Assembly: GCA_964604135.1 (NCBI GenBank)
Contig: CAZRXU010000002.1
Location: forward strand, 636-64,635
Source: an uncultured bacterium
GTDB lineage: Bacteria > Fermentibacterota > Fermentibacteria > Fermentibacterales > JCC-6
DNA length: 64,000 bases
Direction: 5' to 3'
Under the pieces are notes generated by a model. The model worked only from the letters and a program-made list of their open reading frames with translations. It was not told the DNA's origin and did no database searches. Of the stretch, positions 36,832 to 45,451 are shown one piece after another. Positions within the stretch are counted from its first letter, which is position 1; the number at the start of each line of letters is the position of its first letter. Made by a program: the position numbers and the translations under genes.

Positions 36832-37315
36832 ATTGAGCACAACAGGGCTTGCTGTTCTGGTAATTCTGGGAGCTGGATGCGGAAACCACCCTGCTTCCGA
36901 CTCCGTAAAGGCTTTTACAATTGCTCTGGCCGACTCTTCATGGTCTGATGCGTGGCAGCTTCTAACACCTGATACCCGTGCTGTATGGGATTCCACAGCT
37001 GTAGTTTTCCACCAGTTCGGATACAGGGAGAGTTCCGAATTCCTTGCATCACTCAGTGTTCCGGTAACGCAGGAAGAGTTTGCAGCAATGGATGGTGAAA
37101 TGCTTTTCACCAGAATGGTACAGACTTCAGGTGAGGTTTCTGACTTGTCCAGTTCTGTTCGGGGTGTTGAGCTTACTGATTCAACTACGGCCCTTGTTCG
37201 TATTGCCACTTCCCAGGGCGAGCAGATTATTCCGGTAAAGCTTGTGGGTGATCGCTGGTTGCTTGATCTCACAACGCTTACACCGCCGCCTGAACTTGAA
37301 GCGAACGATGAATAG
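36821..37315 (+). CDS. Small lipoprotein, function unknown
   Basis: MFYKLSTTGLAVLVILGAGC-G lipobox. ATG 36821 overlaps the DUF1015 stop by 11 nt. Confidence 0.55.
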   Translation: MFYKLSTTGLAVLVILGAGCGNHPASDSVKAFTIALADSSWSDAWQLLTPDTRAVWDSTAVVFHQFGYRESSEFLASLSVPVTQEEFAAMDGEMLFTRMVQTSGEVSDLSSSVRGVELTDSTTALVRIATSQGEQIIPVKLVGDRWLLDLTTLTPPPELEANDE

Positions 37316-37333
37316 AATGGGAGTTTCAGGCGT

Positions 37334-37969
37334 TTGATAAAGCAACTGAAGAGGGAGCTGAAAGATTCGGAGTACAGAAGGTACCAGCTGAAGAGTATTG
37401 TGTTCTTCGGTGTAGGTGTGGTTGTTCTTGCAATGATCGCCGGATATTTCTTCAGACAGAGCCCGGCCCGGCCTCCCACAGGGCTGGCTGGTATTGCCTG
37501 TGATTTCCCCAGCGGGAGGTGGTTCAACACCGCAGAACCTCTCAGTCTGTATGACCAGCTTCGAGGGCATGTTGTGGTTGTTCTTTTCAACGATTTCAAC
37601 ACCCTGTCTGACCTGGAAGATCTTTCCAGGTTCAGTGAGCTGAACCGTCTGTTCGTCGATCAGTCTATGTTTGGAATTGTTGTATTGACCAGCGGAGAAA
37701 CAGCAACCGCAGATTCTCTTGTAAATCAGTGGCAGATTGACTGCCCTGTGCTGGCTGACCCGGACAGTGTGGCAATGCAGACTTTCGGCATAAGAGCTCT
37801 TCCGGCGGTTCTTGTTATTGACTCACGAGCAAGGGTTGCCGCGCGTTACTATGAAGACTGGCAGAGGATACCCATTGAAGCCGTAATACAGGATCTTCTG
37901 GATCAGGGAGTTGCCACACATTCACTGGCAGCTGTGAAATTTGTACCCGGCACTACGGATCTGCAGTGA
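37334..37969 (+). CDS. Membrane-anchored thioredoxin-fold (TlpA/redoxin-like) protein lacking the CxxC motif
   Basis: N-terminal TM segment. GHVVVVLFNDFNTLSD occupies the position of GK.V.V.FWA.WC..C. Downstream FGIRALPAVLVIDSRARV matches the cis-Pro region. TTG start. Confidence 0.55.
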   Translation: MIKQLKRELKDSEYRRYQLKSIVFFGVGVVVLAMIAGYFFRQSPARPPTGLAGIACDFPSGRWFNTAEPLSLYDQLRGHVVVVLFNDFNTLSDLEDLSRFSELNRLFVDQSMFGIVVLTSGETATADSLVNQWQIDCPVLADPDSVAMQTFGIRALPAVLVIDSRARVAARYYEDWQRIPIEAVIQDLLDQGVATHSLAAVKFVPGTTDLQ

Positions 37970-37991
37970 TAACCAACGGAAAGAGGATGCA

Positions 37992-39116
37992 ATGATACAA
38001 CCCCATGGAGGAGAACTGGTCAACAGAACCATAACTGAAGACCAGCTTTCCGGTAATGCCATGGTTTTAAATTTGAATGAACGGGAGAAAAACGACCTCG
38101 AGATGATAGGCTGCGGAGCTATGAGCCCTCTTGAGGGTTTTATGGTAAGCGCAGACTACAACTCTGTGGTAGACAGCATGCGCCTTGCCAGCGGTACTGT
38201 GTGGAGTCTCCCGGTTGTTTTTTCAAAGAAAGCAGATGATCCTGAAGTTTCCGTGGGTGATGAGGTTGTTTTTAACTACAACGGTGTTCTTCGGGGAACC
38301 ATGAAGGTTGAAGAGATATTTCAGGCTGACCTTATGCACGAAGCCCGCAAGACACTTCTTACCGACGACGAAAACCACCCGGGGGTTCAGTATCTTAACA
38401 GCATCAGCGGCACATACATTGGCGGGCAGATAAGTGCCATTGATATGCGTGACCACGAGCCTTTCAGAGAACACAGGCTAATTCCGGAAGAGACCAGAGC
38501 ACTTTTTCAGGAAAAGGGCTGGAAGAGTATCGTTGCCTTTCAAACAAGAAATCCTATCCACCGTGCTCACGAGTACCTGCAGAAAGTTTCTCTGGAAATG
38601 GTGGACGGCCTGCTTGTTCATCCTCTGGTAGGGGCCACAAAGGCCGATGATATTCCGGCTGACGTAAGAATGAAATGTTACGAAACCATTCTTGAAAAGT
38701 ACTACCCCGCAGACAGAACAGCTCTAAGTGTTTTCCCGGCTGCCATGCGCTATGCCGGTCCCAGGGAGGCGATCTTCCACGCGCTTATAAGGAAGAATTA
38801 CGGCTGCACCCATTTTATAGTGGGCAGAGATCACGCAGGTGTGGGAGACTACTACGGCACCTACGATGCACAGACAATATTTGAGTCTTTCGAGCCGGAA
38901 GAGATAGACATAATTCCTTTGAAGTTTGAGCACGCTTTTTACTGCAATACCTGTGGCGGTATGGCCACGGCAAGAACATGCCCCCATACAGGAGCTGACA
39001 GAGTGTTTCTCTCCGGCAAGAAAGTAAGAGCCATGCTCAACGATGGAATACTTCCTCCGCCTGAATTCACCCGTCCTGAGATTGCTCAGATTCTTATGGA
39101 AGCGGTATCGAAGTAA
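37992..39116 (+). CDS. sat: Sulfate adenylyltransferase (ATP sulfurylase)
   Basis: MIQPHGGELVNR, QTRNPIHRAHEYL and GRDHAGVG motifs. AAGAGGA upstream of ATG 37992. Confidence 0.92.
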   Translation: MIQPHGGELVNRTITEDQLSGNAMVLNLNEREKNDLEMIGCGAMSPLEGFMVSADYNSVVDSMRLASGTVWSLPVVFSKKADDPEVSVGDEVVFNYNGVLRGTMKVEEIFQADLMHEARKTLLTDDENHPGVQYLNSISGTYIGGQISAIDMRDHEPFREHRLIPEETRALFQEKGWKSIVAFQTRNPIHRAHEYLQKVSLEMVDGLLVHPLVGATKADDIPADVRMKCYETILEKYYPADRTALSVFPAAMRYAGPREAIFHALIRKNYGCTHFIVGRDHAGVGDYYGTYDAQTIFESFEPEEIDIIPLKFEHAFYCNTCGGMATARTCPHTGADRVFLSGKKVRAMLNDGILPPPEFTRPEIAQILMEAVSK

Positions 39117-39117
39117 A

Positions 39118-39155
39118 AGTATCCCCTGTGTCTTTTAAAGACGCAGGGGATACTT
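39118..39155 (-). terminator. Hairpin terminator closing the rSAM-peptide transcription unit (shared convergent gap with sat)
   Basis: AGTATCCCCTG (39118-39128) pairs with CAGGGGATACT (39144-39154). On the minus strand the stem is followed by TTTTAC; on the plus strand there is no T-run. Confidence 0.55.
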
Positions 39156-39216
39156 ACTGCCAGAAAGGTTGTTTGTTCAGTATAACTGAAGGATTAGGCT
39201 GGAAGCCTACATCCAG

Positions 39217-39357
39217 TTACCCATTTTGTACGCACACAGCCTGGAAGCAGTGACAGTCGGGCCCGCACACGGCCTGGAAGCAATGACAGTCGGGCCCGCA
39301 CACTGCTTGATGACAATGACAGGAATCAACCATACCCGTTTTTACAATATTACTCAT
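39217..39357 (-). CDS. 46-aa Cys/His-rich triple-repeat peptide (candidate RiPP precursor): MSNIVKTGMVDSCHCHQAVCGPDCHCFQAVCGPDCHCFQAVCVQNG
   Basis: Hand translation of the minus strand. ATG at 39357 lies 4 nt after the rSAM stop (39362-39364) and TAA is at 39217-39219. 9 Cys and 4 His. Encoded by a 33-bp tandem repeat whose two inter-copy differences (CAT/CAC, GCC/GCT) are synonymous in this frame only. Below the 60-aa cutoff of the ORF track. No clear SD, so coupling to the rSAM stop is assumed. Confidence 0.7.
   Translation of the reverse strand: MSNIVKTGMVDSCHCHQAVCGPDCHCFQAVCGPDCHCFQAVCVQNG
39232..39323. repeat. 33-bp tandem repeat, about 2.8 copies
   Basis: 39232-39264 and 39265-39297 differ at 2 of 33 positions. 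39298-39323 is a diverged partial third copy. Confidence 0.9.
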
Positions 39358-39361
39358 GGGC

Positions 39362-40669
39362 TCATTTACAAATTTCATTCCCACTTCCTTTCTGTTTTCC
39401 GGCAGTTAATGATATATAAGAACCAGTGATTGATTTTATGTACTCGCTATCTGACTTATAGAGGCACTTAGGTTCCCGATTCATTACAGCATTCCTTGGG
39501 CACCCCCCTCCACAACTAGGCAAATATGAACACTCATAGCACGGACTTCCCGGCAAGTAAGGATCCCACCCTGCCCATTTCGAAAAGGTGACAATATCTT
39601 CCTCCGCCGAATCATCAAAAATAGTACTGCTACTCTCATTGTCATCCAGATGCTCCCAGCATCTAACGAGTTTGCCGTTTGGAAGCACAACACCGGGTTT
39701 TAAAGAGCTTGCTCCGCAGCCTCCCACGAATGAGTAAATATTTCTGAGGGTAACCTGTTCAACTGGCAGAGTTTCAGCAATTTTTTTCTGGGTATTTGAA
39801 TAGAACTCGGTATCTCCCTGACAGGACAAATCAACCGGGGCGAGATGAACATCTGTAAGAGGCAGGGGTGCAATCATTTCCTTAAGCTTGTTGATCTCGT
39901 CCAGTTTAGGATCCTTGACATTCATTCTTACATGAATCTGAACAATACCGGCACATGCTTTTATATTCTGTATAATTCTGTCGTATGTGCCACTTCCATT
40001 TGCCAGGGGTCTGTTGGAGTCATGAATCTCTTTCGAGCCATCAATGGTTACCTGTATGTGGCTGATACCGCACTCTTTCAGCTTCTGCAAACGCTCCGGA
40101 GAAAGGAGATACCCGTTGGTGATCATACCTGCATCGAAGGTGGCGCCACTACTCTCTACCGCTTTCTTGCATCGTTTTGCAATATCAATGCATTTATCAT
40201 ATTCGAGAAGAGGTTCTCCCCCGTATAGTGTAAGGGAAAACTGTTTTCCTTCGAATTCTTCTGCCTTCTTAACAACCTGCTCTAGAACTTCATCTGTTAT
40301 CGAATCACCTCCTTCAAGGATCGAATGCTCAAAACAGTAGGTACACCGAAAGTTACATTTTCTGGTCATCACTAAAGTATAGTTACTCATTAATGTAGGC
40401 ATAATAAACTTCGATGAATTATAACTGATTCGTAAAAGGTTTCTTTCATCAAGTTCATCCTGAATAATATATCCACCATGTTTTAAAGCACTCACTAACT
40501 CATTTCCCATTGTTGCGAGAGAGTCATCTATGCTGTCATTACCAGCGAACAACTCCTTGAGAGAGTTAACATTTTCCTTTTCGAGAACCGCCATTGCTCC
40601 AGTGAATCCATTGTATGCTATTGTATTACCTTCGTGCTCTACAATCCAGTTGTAACGTGACAGTTTCAC
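39362..40669 (-). CDS. Radical SAM / SPASM-domain enzyme with an N-terminal extension of about 100 aa (peptide-maturase architecture)
   Basis: CX3CX2C at C105/C109/C112 (RKCNFRCTYCFE). C-terminal SPASM signature CX2CX5CX3C (CYECSYLPSCGGGC), plus upstream Cys in GGCGAS and VRCWE. GTG start at 40669 with AAGGGGGA 4-5 nt upstream. Confidence 0.88.
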   Translation of the reverse strand: MKLSRYNWIVEHEGNTIAYNGFTGAMAVLEKENVNSLKELFAGNDSIDDSLATMGNELVSALKHGGYIIQDELDERNLLRISYNSSKFIMPTLMSNYTLVMTRKCNFRCTYCFEHSILEGGDSITDEVLEQVVKKAEEFEGKQFSLTLYGGEPLLEYDKCIDIAKRCKKAVESSGATFDAGMITNGYLLSPERLQKLKECGISHIQVTIDGSKEIHDSNRPLANGSGTYDRIIQNIKACAGIVQIHVRMNVKDPKLDEINKLKEMIAPLPLTDVHLAPVDLSCQGDTEFYSNTQKKIAETLPVEQVTLRNIYSFVGGCGASSLKPGVVLPNGKLVRCWEHLDDNESSSTIFDDSAEEDIVTFSKWAGWDPYLPGSPCYECSYLPSCGGGCPRNAVMNREPKCLYKSDSEYIKSITGSYISLTAGKQKGSGNEICK

Positions 40670-40770
40670 TGAATCCCCCTTAATAATATGAAGCCATAAT
40701 ACACCTGCAGCATTGTCTGGTCAATTCGCCTGGAATTGAGCAATGCTAACCACTCTTGGCCAGAAAAAGC

Positions 40771-40799
40771 ATTATTAAGATGATTTACAGTTAAGTCAA
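40771..40799 (-). promoter_or_regulatory. Possible sigma70-type promoter for the rSAM-peptide unit
   Basis: Minus strand reads TTGACT (40799-40794), a 17-nt spacer, then AATAAT (40776-40771). This would give a leader of about 95 nt. Pattern match only. Confidence 0.25.
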
Positions 40800-41036
40800 G
40801 GCAATACCAATGCCTATTCTTAGCGTCTTATCAGCACAACACGCCTGCAATACAATTATCCATACATGTATGTTGTTGCATGATGTATATGGCGTTTGCT
40901 TATTGTCAGGATAGTGCGAATACGGTAGTAGATGAATGCTGCAGTAATCAAGGAGGGTAATGGTGTCGCTCAAACAGCATTACCACCTCTTTTACATTGT
41001 CGAAACGGGTTAGTACTTCTGTCAACACCAGTTGAG

Positions 41037-41063
41037 CAGGGGGATTCAGTGCAAATCCCCCTG
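41037..41063 (-). terminator. 10-bp perfect hairpin downstream of sppA (possible terminator/insulator)
   Basis: CAGGGGGATT (41037-41046), loop CAGTGCA, AATCCCCCTG (41054-41063). No T-run on either strand. Confidence 0.3.
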
Positions 41064-41170
41064 TCCGGAATGATCGTATCCCATCAAACCACAAACAAAG
41101 GAGGCAAAGCACTCACCTGTCAGTCAGAACGAAAAAATCCATGAAACAGGGAAGGCAGAAGGAATTCCGG

Positions 41171-43534
41171 TTATTCGATAACAAGCTCCGGGGCCAGATA
41201 CAGAGGTCCTTCAATGTTGACGAAAGGGTCTTGCGTTACAGCTTCCAGTGTTCCAAGCGCAGAAAGACCTCCCAGGGGAAAACTGATAGAGCCCAGCCCT
41301 GTAAGCTTAGGGAACACAACGATATCAGGGTTGCCATTGATGTCAGCAAGCCTTGCAGCGTGGGCAACCGCGTCCATTACGCCTCCGTTGTAGTCAACCA
41401 GGCCGAGTTCAAGAGCATCGGCACCGGACCACACCCTGCCCTGACCTATAGCATCTATCTCATCAAAGGTTTTGTTTCTGCCACGGGCAACTGTGGAAAC
41501 GAACAGGTTGTAGCCTTCGCGCATGGCATCGAACTGACTTTCGCGCTGTTCTGCCGTGCACGGTTCAAAGATATTGCCCGGGACTCCAGCGGGCTGAATT
41601 TCAACTTTCTCTACATTTACGCCTATTCTGCTGAGCAAATCTCCGAACACGAATTTACCGCTGATGATTCCAATGGATCCGGTTACAGTGAATTTATCTG
41701 CAAAAATCGCGTCTGCCCCGCAGGCAATGTAGTAACCTCCGCTTGCAGCAGCACTGCCCATGCTTACCACTACAGGCATTCTTTCCCTGATGTTTTCCAC
41801 TGTGTGGTTAATATCATCGCTTGCCATGGCATCGCCGCCACCGGAGTTGATCCTAAGAACAACAGCTTTGACTCCCGGTGTGTTTGCGGCCTGTTCCAGC
41901 ATTCCTGTGACAGTTTCACTGCCCATGGTACGACCGAGAATAGATGTGCCGCTGTGCCCGTTAATAATATTCCCGTCGGCGACTACAACTGCAATGCGGG
42001 GGTCGAACCCCCAGTTGGAAGAGGCCTCGGGCAGGTCGTTGTAGAAATCAGTACTCATTGTTGTTACAGAACAGTTCAACTCATGGCCTACATAGCTTTC
42101 AAATTGATCTCTGTACAGCAGTGTGTCTACAAGGCCTGTAATAACCATAGATTCACCGGCAAATGCAGACCGGGAAAACAGAACACTCATCTGAGCCGGT
42201 TCAAACCCTCTTCCTTCAGTAACTCCTCTGATAAATTCTGTTTTGTATGATTCCAGCATGGCTGTGGTCGCCTCTATCTGGGCATCTGATATACCATGCT
42301 CTGTAATCATATCACTGAAACTTTTGTAGGCACCTATGTGCATGAGGTCGGGGTAAATACCTATGTTGTCAAGCAGACCCCTGATAAAGAAAGTGTAGCT
42401 GGTGAAACCGCTAATGGAAACCTGACCCGCTTTGTGCATACAGATGGTTCTGGCCGCTGCTGCAGTGTAGTACGAGCTGTTCCCGGAGTTGTTCATATAG
42501 GCGAACACAGGTTTTCCAAGTGAACGGTAATCGACCATTATACTTCTGAGTTCTTCGGACTGCGCTGCACTCAGGGAGTAGCCGGAAAAATCTATAAGAA
42601 GCCCTTTTACCCTGGAGTCGTGAGCACCGGATGCAAGAGCTGCCATCTGTTCGGTGAAGCAGGAAACCCTGGGGCCCAGAAAGGCACGGCCTGGAAGCTC
42701 GTTCCCGTTGTCTGCACTGTAGCTGAGGAACTTTGGCAGAGGTTCGATGATGCTTGGCTGGGAATGCTCGTTAAGGATAATTCCGGTAGTTGCACTAAGG
42801 TAATCACCGTCGTGAATATCGGCTCCGGCGGTTATACCCGCCTTTCCGAAATCAAGCTGTATACCTGCTGTCAGCACCTGATCTTCGCCGTAAGCGCATC
42901 TGAATGTTAGGCCGTCTATTGCCCGAAGTTCCGCGCCCGCCGACCACCGGTTGTCAATGATTCCCGATGCAAACCTGTAGTCGCCGGTCAAAGTAACTGT
43001 TTCATCGCCCAGAGGGCGAAGAGCAACGCCTGCAATGTAGCAGCCGTCGATGTCTCCTGTGGATGTTCGGGCAGTTGCCCCGATGCCTATGTGGTCGTCC
43101 GGTCTGATGTTAATACCCAGTGTGAGGAATTTCTCACCGGCCTGAGGGTGGTTTTTCACTGTGGGGTCGTACCATGTGAATCCAAGCCCTGCCGAGAAGG
43201 CGTTACCGAACTGGTAGGCTCCTGATGTAGTAAACCGTCTCAGGCTCTGATTGTCTTCCCACCATCCGGCAAAACCGCCTGATCTGTCTTCTATTGAAAA
43301 TCGGTCAATGTGTTCAAATGTACTGTCGCTGAATACAGCTCCTGCCCTGAAACGAGTTCCGTTGAGCCAGCTAGTTCCAGCCGGGTTGATCAGCAGAGTG
43401 TTGCCTGCTTCGGGATATGCCGTCCACCAGAATGGTACAGAGGGACCGGGAGCCGGATCCATAGCCCAGGAGAAAAGGGCCAGGGCAACAAAAACGGAAC
43501 CAACCATAATACACCACCTTTCAATTGCAGACAA
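41171..43534 (-). CDS. sppA: Signal peptide peptidase SppA (67K type, two S49 domains) with a beta-rich N-terminal extension of about 270 aa
   Basis: S49 motifs VVLRINSGGG...SMGSAAASGGYYIACGAD.IFA...TVTGSIGI, plus a first degenerate S49 repeat. N-terminal region Gly/aromatic rich. Alternative start at Met10. Confidence 0.8.
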   Translation of the reverse strand: MSAIERWCIMVGSVFVALALFSWAMDPAPGPSVPFWWTAYPEAGNTLLINPAGTSWLNGTRFRAGAVFSDSTFEHIDRFSIEDRSGGFAGWWEDNQSLRRFTTSGAYQFGNAFSAGLGFTWYDPTVKNHPQAGEKFLTLGINIRPDDHIGIGATARTSTGDIDGCYIAGVALRPLGDETVTLTGDYRFASGIIDNRWSAGAELRAIDGLTFRCAYGEDQVLTAGIQLDFGKAGITAGADIHDGDYLSATTGIILNEHSQPSIIEPLPKFLSYSADNGNELPGRAFLGPRVSCFTEQMAALASGAHDSRVKGLLIDFSGYSLSAAQSEELRSIMVDYRSLGKPVFAYMNNSGNSSYYTAAAARTICMHKAGQVSISGFTSYTFFIRGLLDNIGIYPDLMHIGAYKSFSDMITEHGISDAQIEATTAMLESYKTEFIRGVTEGRGFEPAQMSVLFSRSAFAGESMVITGLVDTLLYRDQFESYVGHELNCSVTTMSTDFYNDLPEASSNWGFDPRIAVVVADGNIINGHSGTSILGRTMGSETVTGMLEQAANTPGVKAVVLRINSGGGDAMASDDINHTVENIRERMPVVVSMGSAAASGGYYIACGADAIFADKFTVTGSIGIISGKFVFGDLLSRIGVNVEKVEIQPAGVPGNIFEPCTAEQRESQFDAMREGYNLFVSTVARGRNKTFDEIDAIGQGRVWSGADALELGLVDYNGGVMDAVAHAARLADINGNPDIVVFPKLTGLGSISFPLGGLSALGTLEAVTQDPFVNIEGPLYLAPELVIE

Positions 43535-43593
43535 TATACCTGTCCTGTACGCTATAACTTAGCAAATCAGCAATGTGTAATGCAAAATACGGT

Positions 43594-44619
43594 TCAGAAT
43601 GACCTTCCGAAGGCACTTTGAATCAACATACCCTCTTCACTCCAGGCAGCATCCAGCCGCATTTGTGCCGAAGAATTCAGCTTGATATCCAGCCCGCACC
43701 CACAGTCGGTGTGAAGTCTGTTAATGGTTAGTTCTGTGAATTCTTCTGCGGCTTCCCCTGCTTCTGCAAAAACCGTGGCACCAATTGTTAGTGCCTGATC
43801 ACTTCCAGCCTTACCAAGTGTGAACAGATCCTGCCTTACTTCAAACTGGGAAAGGTTCCACACGGTACCGGTGAACCTGTAGTCTTTGTAGCCTCTGAAA
43901 TTTTCGTTCTGGCCGATACCTGCCACATAGGGAACCGGTGCTTTCGCAGCGTTGAACTGCCGGTGAACTCTTGTACCGAGTGCAATTTCGCCGCCTGACC
44001 ATGGTCTTACAGTACCTCTGACTTTACCTGAAAGACCGCTGTAAGACACATCTCCAGCTTGAAAGAAGCCCCCGGCGCAAAGAAGTATGTCTCCATTTAC
44101 GGGAATAGCTGTGGTGTAGTCGATTCTTCCGCTGAGTCCTGTTGTCCAGGTTGAAGCGAAGTTCTCCTCTGAAAGGCTGCTCCACAGAACACTTTGTTCC
44201 CTGTTGAACACGGAAGAGTGCCGGACATCAAGACCTGCTGTAAAGGAAAAATGGCTGCCGGCTGGAGCGGTGAAGGTTACAAGCAGGTCTGCTTTTTCAA
44301 AATCCATTGTTGCAAAAGAGTCGGGATCTGTATTGTTTCCCCAGCCGTACCATTCTTTGCCGATAACCTTTCTGTAACCGGGACTGATTGAAAGCAGTCC
44401 CGAGTGATACACTCTTAGCATCTCCGGCTGGAACTTTATTACTCCTGCGGTACCATAGTATGTGTTGACTGTGAATTGCCCCGGAGGGGAGGAGAGAGGA
44501 AAGACCAGGAACCCTCCGAAGATGAATCCTGATGAGGCGGAATACCCCAGTGTGGGCAGGGCGGAGAAAGCAAAAGCAGAGGCAACGAATAATGCCAGAA
44601 TGGCTGTTGTTTTTTTCAT
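43594..44619 (-). CDS. Putative outer-membrane beta-barrel protein
   Basis: ATG 44619 (MKKTTAILALFVASAFAFSA signal peptide). Alternating beta-strand pattern. C-terminus ...SAFGRSF ends in Phe. Confidence 0.6.
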   Translation of the reverse strand: MKKTTAILALFVASAFAFSALPTLGYSASSGFIFGGFLVFPLSSPPGQFTVNTYYGTAGVIKFQPEMLRVYHSGLLSISPGYRKVIGKEWYGWGNNTDPDSFATMDFEKADLLVTFTAPAGSHFSFTAGLDVRHSSVFNREQSVLWSSLSEENFASTWTTGLSGRIDYTTAIPVNGDILLCAGGFFQAGDVSYSGLSGKVRGTVRPWSGGEIALGTRVHRQFNAAKAPVPYVAGIGQNENFRGYKDYRFTGTVWNLSQFEVRQDLFTLGKAGSDQALTIGATVFAEAGEAAEEFTELTINRLHTDCGCGLDIKLNSSAQMRLDAAWSEEGMLIQSAFGRSF

Positions 44620-44728
44620 GTTCTTCCCTTTCCTGAAAGTATTTGTGAACATACTGTGTGTGTCTGCATCGGGGAAGAGTGAGTTTGTAACCGCACAGCA
44701 ATGGATTATATTGACGCAAATTGTGAAA

Positions 44729-45451
44729 ATGAGAGGGGAAGGTTTGGGAAAACCGCTTGTAGTAATACCGACCTACAACGAGTATGAGAACATAGGAAAG
44801 ATCATCCCCGAGCTGCTTGCGCTTCCCATTGAAGCAAGCATTCTTGTGGTTGATGATTCCAGCCCTGACGGTACAGGTGATGTGGTGCTTTCCTTCAGGG
44901 ACACAGGCAGGGTTCATCTTCTCAGCAGGCCCCAGAAGAACGGTCTGGGGCAGGCTTATGTGGCAGGTTTTGCCTGGGCACTTGAGAGGCCGGAGTACGA
45001 CCCTGTTATACAGATGGATGCGGATTTTTCCCACGACCCCCACGCCGTTCCGGAACTGGTGAAACAGCTTGAAACACACGATTTTGTGATTGGGTCCAGA
45101 TACATCAGCGGTGTTAACGTGGTGAACTGGCCTCTGCACCGGTTGATGCTTTCCTGGTTTGCAAGCAGGTATTCAAAGATAATTACAGGCCTTCCTGTTG
45201 AAGACGCAACAGGAGGATTCAAGGCTTTCAGAAGATCAACCCTGGAGAAACTGGACCTCTCTTCCATAAGATCCGACGGGTACTCGTTTCAGATTGAGGT
45301 TACATACAAGCTGTACAAGGCTGGCTGTTCCATAAAAGAAGTTCCAATTGTATTCGTTGACAGGCATTCCGGGACATCCAAGATGTCCCGATCCATAGTG
45401 TGGGAAGCGGCCTGGATGGTCTGGCACATTCGTTTCCCGCGGTTATTCTGA
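44729..45451 (+). CDS. Polyprenol-phosphate mannose synthase-like GT2 glycosyltransferase
   Basis: VVIPTYNE.ENI....E........ILVVDD.SPDGTG....., MDADFSHDP, GSRY..G and GGFKAF match Dpm1/Ppm1-type GT2 enzymes. Start at ATG 44729. Confidence 0.85.
   Translation: MRGEGLGKPLVVIPTYNEYENIGKIIPELLALPIEASILVVDDSSPDGTGDVVLSFRDTGRVHLLSRPQKNGLGQAYVAGFAWALERPEYDPVIQMDADFSHDPHAVPELVKQLETHDFVIGSRYISGVNVVNWPLHRLMLSWFASRYSKIITGLPVEDATGGFKAFRRSTLEKLDLSSIRSDGYSFQIEVTYKLYKAGCSIKEVPIVFVDRHSGTSKMSRSIVWEAAWMVWHIRFPRLF

Follow-up and report, generated by a model that had tools for sequence, protein, structure and literature searches.

A 33-nucleotide tandem repeat in a Fermentibacterota genome as the probable triplicated core of an unannotated modified-peptide precursor

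Within a 64,000-nt stretch of an uncultured Fermentibacterota genome (assembly GCA_964604135.1, contig CAZRXU010000002.1, positions 636 to 64,635, referred to as a whole as the window) there is a 33-nt tandem repeat at 39232-39330, and the question it raises is whether the repeat is coding and what it might encode. An initial annotation, made from the letters of the sequence, had taken it for part of a peptide encoded on the minus strand. Very probably the repeat encodes a core module in triplicate within an unannotated precursor gene of a peptide that is made ribosomally and then modified post-translationally (a RiPP), co-transcribed and translationally coupled with the gene of a maturase that combines a RiPP recognition element (RRE), a radical S-adenosylmethionine (rSAM) core and a SPASM domain, and the peptide may be matured along the lines proposed below.

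The repeat array and its reading frame

Tandem Repeats Finder reports a single array of period 33, at 39231-39322 (2.8 copies, 88% matches, score 133), the remaining arrays of the 64-kb window having periods of 14 or less throughout. The array is made up of the following units.

39232-39330, minus strand: three tandem 33-nt units (2.8-3 copies), each an 11-residue module (V/G)(D/P)(S/D)-C-H-C-(H/F)-Q-A-V-C
39298-39330, minus strand: copy 1, older and diverged, GTT GAT TCC TGT CAT TGT CAT CAA GCA GTG TGC = VDSCHCHQAVC
39265-39297, minus strand: copy 2, of the young pair, GGG CCC GAC TGT CAT TGC TTC CAG GCC GTG TGC = GPDCHCFQAVC
39232-39264, minus strand: copy 3, of the young pair, GGG CCC GAC TGT CAC TGC TTC CAG GCT GTG TGC = GPDCHCFQAVC

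The two young copies are identical at 31 of 33 positions, and direct comparison gives 39238 (A/G) and 39250 (G/A) as the sole differences, the same two that had been counted before. In the frame of the minus-strand open reading frame (ORF) 39217-39384 both are third-position synonymous changes, GCT/GCC (Ala) and CAC/CAT (His), and in the frame of the plus-strand ORF 39226-39429 they give S/G and V/M, all of which agrees with the initial annotation. The further statement that the changes are silent only in the minus frame has to be narrowed, they are silent there but also in plus phase 39227 (T/T, Q/Q), a phase that has a TGA inside each repeat unit and is therefore excluded as coding. The older copy does retain the C-H-C-x-Q-A-V-C skeleton previously described (VDSCHCHQAVC against GPDCHCFQAVC), and over the shared CHCxQAVC codons it differs from the young copies by three further synonymous changes (TGT/TGC, CAA/CAG, GCA/GCC) and one replaced codon (CAT/TTC).

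Of all possible substitutions in the block only 19% leave the peptide unchanged, and of transitions 33%. The chance of both young-copy changes being silent is therefore about 0.04-0.11, with no correction for having several frames to choose from, and as statistics two silent changes are weak. The earlier proposal of purifying selection on a minus-frame peptide was thus right about the coding frame, but the strong evidence for it is comparative and does not come from those two changes. In a comparison with a relative, the locus L002, whose leader begins MKFVNEPM as does that of the window, four nucleotide differences were found in eight leader codons and all four are third-position changes that are silent in the minus frame. 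The earlier argument against a non-coding repeat is likewise borne out by a conserved leader, a Shine-Dalgarno site, an overlap with the maturase gene and counterparts in related loci.

The precursor peptide gene

The frame that holds the array belongs to a short gene at the 3' end of the maturase gene, with the following features.

39217-39378, minus strand: precursor peptide gene, 53 amino acids and a stop, MKFVNEPMSNIVKTGMVDSCHCHQAVCGPDCHCFQAVCGPDCHCFQAVCVQNG, from the ORF listing and its translation
39334-39378, minus strand: leader region, residues 1-15, MKFVNEPMSNIVKTG, ending at Gly, from the peptide alignment A2
39384-39391, minus strand: Shine-Dalgarno-like AAAGGAAG, 5 nt upstream of the precursor ATG
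39362-40669, minus strand: maturase of 435 amino acids, RRE-like at its N-terminus, then a radical SAM core, SPASM-type at its C-terminus
39111-39153, minus-strand transcript: hairpin (about 17 bp) and, after it, UUUUACUU, from the sequence and RNAfold of the downstream region
40696-40724, minus strand: promoter-like site 27 nt upstream of the start of the maturase gene, TTGACC-17-TATTAT, by consensus match only

The peptide is laid out as MKFVNEPMSNIVKTG-MVDSCHCHQAVC-GPDCHCFQAVC-GPDCHCFQAVC-VQNG, with 9 Cys and 4 His among its 53 residues and a Cys spacing of 2-5-4 that repeats. A GTG at 39384 would extend it by 2 residues, and the starts of the orthologues match the ATG at 39378. The boundary between leader and core would lie at residue 15, a Gly being present just ahead of the Cys-rich part in most of the recovered peptides. 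The start of the precursor ORF overlaps the stop of the maturase gene by 17 nt on the same strand, and the 53-residue peptide is almost certainly the substrate of this adjoining upstream rSAM maturase.

The hairpin at 39111-39153 is long and near-perfect and lies between the precursor gene and a convergent ATP sulfurylase gene, it probably serves the maturase-peptide operon as its intrinsic terminator and, back-to-back, that convergent gene as well. A simple terminator scan missed it, and an Rfam scan of 38900-41300 found no RNA family, the sole match, which falls on this hairpin, being spurious and sub-threshold (mir-581, 22 bits against a 100-bit threshold). An alignment of the regions of about 500 nt upstream of five maturase genes gave no conserved element.

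Pfam and NCBIfam scans of 11 precursors, the window peptide included, gave no family match. A profile search of 5.8 billion proteins with A2, an alignment of nine precursors, returned 5 candidates and 3 matches, all already known from the loci, and the window peptide was not retrieved. As that search recovered just three, the precursor genes appear to be mostly uncalled, and since gene callers rarely call such peptides the protein databases are unfit for statistics on copy number. The gene has been missed; the peptide is unmodelled, and a spurious antisense ORF takes the same place on the opposite strand.

The adjoining maturase

Pfam finds Radical_SAM (PF04055, 81.6 bits) and also Fer4_12 in the maturase. 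Among 50 aligned homologues ten Cys and G332 do not vary; the Cys are the three of the CX3CX2C motif, C105-NFR-C109-TY-C112, and seven C-terminal ones in the SPASM pattern C318-x13-G332-x4-C337, C377-x2-C380-x5-C386-x3-C390, C402. An AlphaFold2 model built on the same alignment has a mean pLDDT (predicted local distance difference test) of 92 and a pTM (predicted template modelling score) of 0.88. Its N-terminal domain has strands at 7-12, 15-20 and 26-28 and helices at 31-42, 48-52 and 56-64, the pLDDT there being at least 85, and this modelled fold of three strands and three helices has the shape of an RRE, for which leader binding is predicted. In a Foldseek search of the PDB the top match is CteB, a thioether synthase (5wgg/5why, template modelling score 0.70-0.71, full length, about 460 columns); the alignment takes in the RRE of CteB and the superposition runs through the C-terminus. 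TigE, anSME, ChlB, SuiB and SkfB follow, SkfB as only a weak match, and by sequence too CteB is the best PDB match.

The best NCBIfam models for the maturase are all of maturases of Cys-rich RiPPs. Scores are given below with the cut-off of each model.

CefB (NF038107): 189.1 bits, cut-off 600
TIGR04463: 186.2 bits, cut-off 525
Clo7bot (TIGR04334): 183.8 bits, cut-off 600
FlmE/OhkG (NF052473): 178.3 bits, cut-off 500
Geopeptide: 147 bits, cut-off 400
PapB (NF047865): 122.8 bits, cut-off 340, covering the rSAM core alone
SCIFF maturase (TIGR03974): 71.7 bits, cut-off 425
RumMC, a sactisynthase: 69 bits, cut-off 720

By these profile scores the maturase lies inside the super-group of rSAM/SPASM enzymes acting on Cys-rich peptides and outside every curated family. 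The maturase falls short of several of these families: of the sactisynthases by the RumMC score of 69 against 720 bits and the weak match to SkfB, of the curated ranthipeptide models by score (71.7 against 425 and 122.8 against 340 bits), of CefA/CefB by 189.1 against 600 bits and a Cys spacing that is not every fifth residue, and of TIGR04463, Clo7bot and FlmE/OhkG by 186.2, 183.8 and 178.3 bits against 525, 600 and 500. A literature search on OhkG/FlmE found nothing among the papers covered, and the nearest NCBIfam accessions are unmentioned in the available part of PMC10288494.

Related loci

The maturase orthologues form a sharp set at 72, 68 and 51-55% identity (P0002 72%, P0003 68%, P0005-6 53-54%), with the next homologues at 36% or less. 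P0124 was rejected as a separate cluster member, being the same protein with V written at its GTG start. Each orthologue on a contig that is long enough has a small Cys-rich ORF downstream, at -4 to +35 nt. The precursors of these and of more distant loci are as follows.

L001: MTFVNEPKSTLDKQGLDCVCKWDCPGLCTEWCICNLECNCNLNMCIAN
L002: MKFVNEPMDIGVNIPTEGDCDSDCRCNPNFCIADCRCNPNFCIAN
L011: MEFINDPKDIKVDVGECQGCKANPWVQVPPCPPDCPCNMCVCIADN
L005, two precursors: MKFISNPVDVV... and M/VNFINKPATDTAILGG...
L014, distant: ...PCKCKSSWVCQCLAGGYCIGVT
L026, distant: MRFIEYPVAPV...CNCKGAFICACHTEAITC...
L027, distant: MSFLVNPLVL...CPCMPDLIC...
L019 2400-2810, L020 5467-5877 and L023 720-1130: three consecutive precursors (MEFVSQP..., MEFIEVP..., MQFITPP...)

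The two L005 peptides share the leader and lack CxC. Most of the loci with maturases of 31-37% identity keep an MxF(V/I)xxP leader and a CxCx4-5C core, and the precursors of L019, L020 and L023 each have CxCx4-5C followed by I/L, the L019 maturase being 31% identical to that of the window. In four distant loci (L015, L017, L018/L022, L025) no MxF(V/I)xxP/CxCx4-5C peptide was found beside the maturase. Across the precursors the only strongly conserved residues of the core are the Cys (alignment A2), and an AAAGGAG-type site stands 4-7 nt ahead of the ATG in eight of the nine examined, with L020 having AGGGAG further upstream. An adjacent short precursor whose leader is conserved while its core varies is what characterises RRE-dependent rSAM/SPASM RiPP systems, and it is observed here.

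A scan of GTDB representatives with the maturase alignment A1 gave 3 loci and no new close orthologue, and a scan of JGI metagenomes gave 8 loci, none of them above 43% identity. The members of the family were recovered from Fermentibacterota metagenome-assembled genomes (MAGs) and from unclassified metagenome contigs. A different Cys-rich peptide, MEVEMSYIIRPDRVHTNDSQKYCWPVLCVEYQPLPCRIPLCEAHGICTVGFCAPHGSC, is encoded at 922-1128 of L025, upstream of a 36%-identical maturase and without the MxFVxxP leader; as this case illustrates, the position and the type of the precursor vary in the wider family. At 7574-7690 of L001, about 120 nt past the first precursor, there is a second FVNEPKSTLCKQRVDCDCQYACHVF... 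frame, with a stop codon before it and no ATG in register. This may be a duplicate of the precursor that is decaying, or one with an alternative start.

Module iteration and copy number

The 11-residue unit of the window corresponds to one module of the family, CxCx4C, plus a linker. In single-module relatives the module is at the C-terminus, as (D/E)CxCxxxxC(I/V)(A/Q)(D)N. In L002, from Candidatus Sabulitectum, the local version of the module, DCRCNPNFCIA, is perfectly duplicated (2 x 33 nt), and at the nucleotide level this repeat unit is unrelated to that of the window. Each lineage must therefore have gained its duplication, or had it homogenised, on its own. L001 has nine Cys, as has the window, but in three irregular, diverged modules, and in L005 and L019 the core is multiplied by duplication of the whole precursor gene, not by repeats within it. 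The initial suggestion of an iterated core that could expand or contract gains, as an account of the history of the family, from the identity of unit and module and from the independent duplication in L002; ongoing change within a population is conjectural. The window array would have arisen by in-frame 33-nt tandem duplication through slippage or unequal recombination, the pair that matches at 31 of 33 positions being recent and the first copy older.

The longest exact internal repeat of the window array is 20 nt, and because of this the array can be resolved by any assembler with k of at least 21. An identical three-copy sequence is present in two other assemblies, the Logan contig SRR8439058 (presumably assembled with k = 31) and ENA ERZ27262693. 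With three assemblies in exact agreement a collapse of the repeat is not indicated, and the count of three units is reliable.

The count in the Candidatus Sabulitectum relatives varies between assemblies.

L002 5058-5195: two copies
L003 5079-5183: one copy
L004: contig ends at 5150, inside the repeat

Over 5.1 kb of flank the three show 100% identity, and a single dataset is their probable source. L002 against L003 was rejected as proof of a copy-number polymorphism, since with such flanks, and with L004 breaking inside the repeat, assembly collapse is as likely. The three contigs, evidently from one Candidatus Sabulitectum population, are also an instance of short-read assemblers mishandling a perfect 33-nt coding micro-repeat.

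Proposed maturation of the peptide

By analogy with CteB and PapB, the N-terminal RRE of the maturase would bind the leader. The radical SAM cluster would then cleave SAM to give a 5'-deoxyadenosyl radical, which would take a hydrogen from an acceptor residue, and a core Cys thiolate held at the SPASM auxiliary cluster would close a thioether to the acceptor carbon. Repeated on each of the three modules, this reaction would give three equivalent small rings. More specifically, and as a guess, each module would have its third Cys linked to the Asp/Asn at +3 (CGPD, CGPD, CVQN), as in ranthipeptides, with the CHC pair left for further cross-links, disulfides or metal binding.

The pattern C-x-x-[D/N] occurs exactly once in each module of the window, as CGPD, CGPD and CVQN. 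In the cores of the close clade (four related sequences, with repeats de-duplicated) D/E/N stands at Cys+3 16 times against 7.3 expected, a value reached by none of 20,000 shuffles. It is on these patterns that the Cys+3 residue is hypothesised to be the acceptor. In PMC9413430, PapB is described as forming Cys-Asp/Glu thioethers in six repeated C-X3-D/E motifs and as accepting C-Xn-D with n of 0-6.

Relation to known systems

The freyrasin pair PapA/PapB (a ranthipeptide, NF047865) also has an rSAM/SPASM maturase acting on a short precursor with an iterated Cys motif. PapB is the nearest biochemically characterised NCBIfam match, at 122.8 bits, and the modules of the window each hold C-x-x-D/N, a candidate counterpart of the PapA motif. 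The PapA core (PMC9413430) has six C-X3-D/E motifs with one small thioether ring each. The window differs in a module of 11 residues with three Cys (CxCx4C, not CxxxD), in having three modules and not six, in an unrelated leader, and in a PapB score that is far below 340 and covers the rSAM core only.

The match to the SCIFF/thermocellin pair CteA/CteB (TIGR03974; 5wgg, 5why) is structural, with the RRE, rSAM and SPASM parts all covered, and CteA is, as here, a Cys-rich precursor of about 45-55 residues beside its maturase. However, CteB is only 17-19% identical to the window maturase, which scores 71.7 bits where the cut-off is 425. The SCIFF precursors form a strongly conserved family that has no internal repeats, whereas the window peptide matches no NCBIfam precursor model. 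The uncharacterised, Haft-type systems CefA/CefB, TIGR04463, Clo7bot and FlmE/OhkG supply the top four hidden Markov model (HMM) matches at 178-189 bits, three of them near full-length, and likewise pair rSAM/SPASM maturases with small Cys-rich peptides. The scores are about one third of the cut-offs of 500-600 bits, and in CefA there is a Cys at every fifth residue, unlike the 2-5-4 spacing of the window peptide.

TvgA/TvgB, with TVGG-repeat peptides that become poly-cyclopropylglycine (TigE, 8vpo), resemble the window in that a repeated short core is processed iteratively by one RRE-rSAM-SPASM enzyme, and TigE is the second-best fold match of the maturase. Such iterated-core systems are described in PMC9062424 and PMC10878394. 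TvgB/TigE differ in acting on Val methyl groups in cores without Cys, and identity is about 16%. Repeated cores processed by rSAM/SPASM enzymes are thus well known, from freyrasin and the poly-cyclopropylglycine peptides, and the type of locus is not new.

Genomic setting and export

The cassette of the window has two flanking genes of a housekeeping-like or general kind.

37941-39116, plus strand: convergent ATP sulfurylase, a housekeeping-like neighbour
41171-43534, minus strand: S49 signal-peptide peptidase of 787 amino acids, upstream of the maturase on the same strand, about 500 nt away

An AhpC/TSA-like protein and a DUF1015 protein are other housekeeping-like neighbours. For the ATP sulfurylase, identity reaches 94-95% with proteins from MAGs of Candidatus Fermentibacteraceae/Fermentibacteria and 83-85% with those of Candidatus Sabulitectum, which places the window in the Fermentibacterota. 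A 369-residue ORF at 41141-42250 (plus strand) is wholly antisense to the S49 peptidase gene and is almost certainly a shadow ORF. The G+C content is 42.4% in the maturase gene, 43.1% in the intergenic region upstream of it and 48.8% in the whole window. The neighbours of the cassette differ by genome, with ATP sulfurylase and SppA in the window, TyrRS on one side in L001 and NFACT on one side in L002. The cassette may move horizontally.

In related loci an ABC exporter is found beside the cassette, in L001, L002, L005, L011, L025 and L026. These exporters have ABC_membrane and ABC_tran domains, are 514-598 residues long and have no C39 peptidase domain listed. Five are placed as follows.

L001: 7980-9644
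L002: 5572-7116
L005: 3413-5167
L011: 2510-4237
L025: 2689-4485

Weighing of the explanations

A number of points weigh against the reading of a thioether-forming maturase acting on a triplicated core. The selection signal within the window depends on very few substitutions. The maturase is far under every curated NCBIfam cut-off, and the Pfam SPASM HMM gives no match on it at E<=1. The enrichment of Cxx[D/E/N] is drawn from four sequences that are related to one another; the more distant L014 and L019a do not show it, nor does L005, and the chemistry of the maturase, both the thioether and the residues involved, is suggested by fold and by resemblance to the nearest families only. There is no exporter within 5 kb of the cassette and no leader protease nearby (window 37000-45000), so that the cassette could be incomplete or silent.

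It is possible, though doubtful, that the same enzyme and substrate are joined by another chemistry, such as C-C or C-O cross-links, epimerisation or some other transformation of Cys, with Cys serving as disulfides or metal ligands. The RRE-rSAM-SPASM fold catalyses many reactions, the fold matches after CteB being the cyclopropylglycine synthase TigE, anSME, ChlB and SuiB, the maturase is under the cut-off of every characterised family, and in PMC10288494 StsB is a case in which full-length similarity can mispredict rSAM chemistry. Yet the Cys are the only strongly conserved residues of the core, the nearest HMM families act on Cys-rich peptides and the nearest characterised enzymes, PapB and CteB, make thioethers. 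Rather unlikely is a broader proposal in which the peptides with MxFVNEP leaders and CxCx4-5C cores form, with their maturases, an undescribed RiPP family whose cross-link type or topology may differ from that of sacti- and ranthipeptides, and in which 33-nt duplications, by setting the number of modules, would naturally vary how many rings are made or how many Cys/His sites remain for metal. A mature product that chiefly binds metal, like a metallothionein or a metallophore, with CHC modules that multiply the sites and a repeat number that tunes metal capacity, is improbable. The 38 residues of the window core do contain 9 Cys and 4 His, with a CHC triplet in each module, a composition and length that we take to resemble those of bacterial metallothioneins, but the peptide has no metallothionein Pfam family at E<=1, and to be paired strictly with an rSAM maturase, and at other loci with an ABC exporter, is the pattern of RiPPs. 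The His at the CHC position is unconserved in relatives, which have CRC, CNC, CVC, CIC or CPC, and metal binding is for this reason disfavoured as the function of the family.

That the count of three is an artefact of assembly, the true array being longer or shorter, is very improbable. The Sabulitectum assemblies of what is apparently one genome do give one copy, two copies and a break, but in the window the copies are distinguishable, no exact internal repeat exceeds 20 nt, and the three assemblies, the Logan contig among them, agree exactly. It is scarcely credible that the repeat is non-coding, as a 3' untranslated region or intergenic satellite of the maturase gene, or that it is part of the plus-strand ORF 39226-39429, with the silent pattern a coincidence. 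Two silent changes alone could be chance at the level given above, they are silent in a second frame too, and a plus-strand ORF of 67 residues does exist. This explanation is already contradicted, however, by a minus-strand ORF, leader, Shine-Dalgarno site and position that are conserved in related loci despite 30-70% divergence of the maturase, by the lack of any RNA family here in Rfam, and by the plus-strand ORF itself, which is antisense to the precursor and to the 3' end of the maturase gene and has no conserved counterpart, the antisense frame of L002 being open for only 28 residues.

Significance

At this locus of the window an unannotated RiPP precursor, its core present in triplicate, stands next to a maturase of an unmodelled subfamily, the putative chemistry of the product being what the nearest enzymes would suggest. 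It is a further, unsurprising case of a kind of bacterial locus for natural products that was already known. For the reading of repeats it illustrates that silent differences between young copies can flag the coding frame, with comparative support needed before they carry weight. A precursor/maturase family that had been unmodelled, from the uncultured phylum Fermentibacterota, is added to the repertoire of rSAM/SPASM RiPPs. With core versions of one, two and three modules it amounts to a natural experiment, usable for studies of iterative processing or for the engineering of multi-ring peptides.

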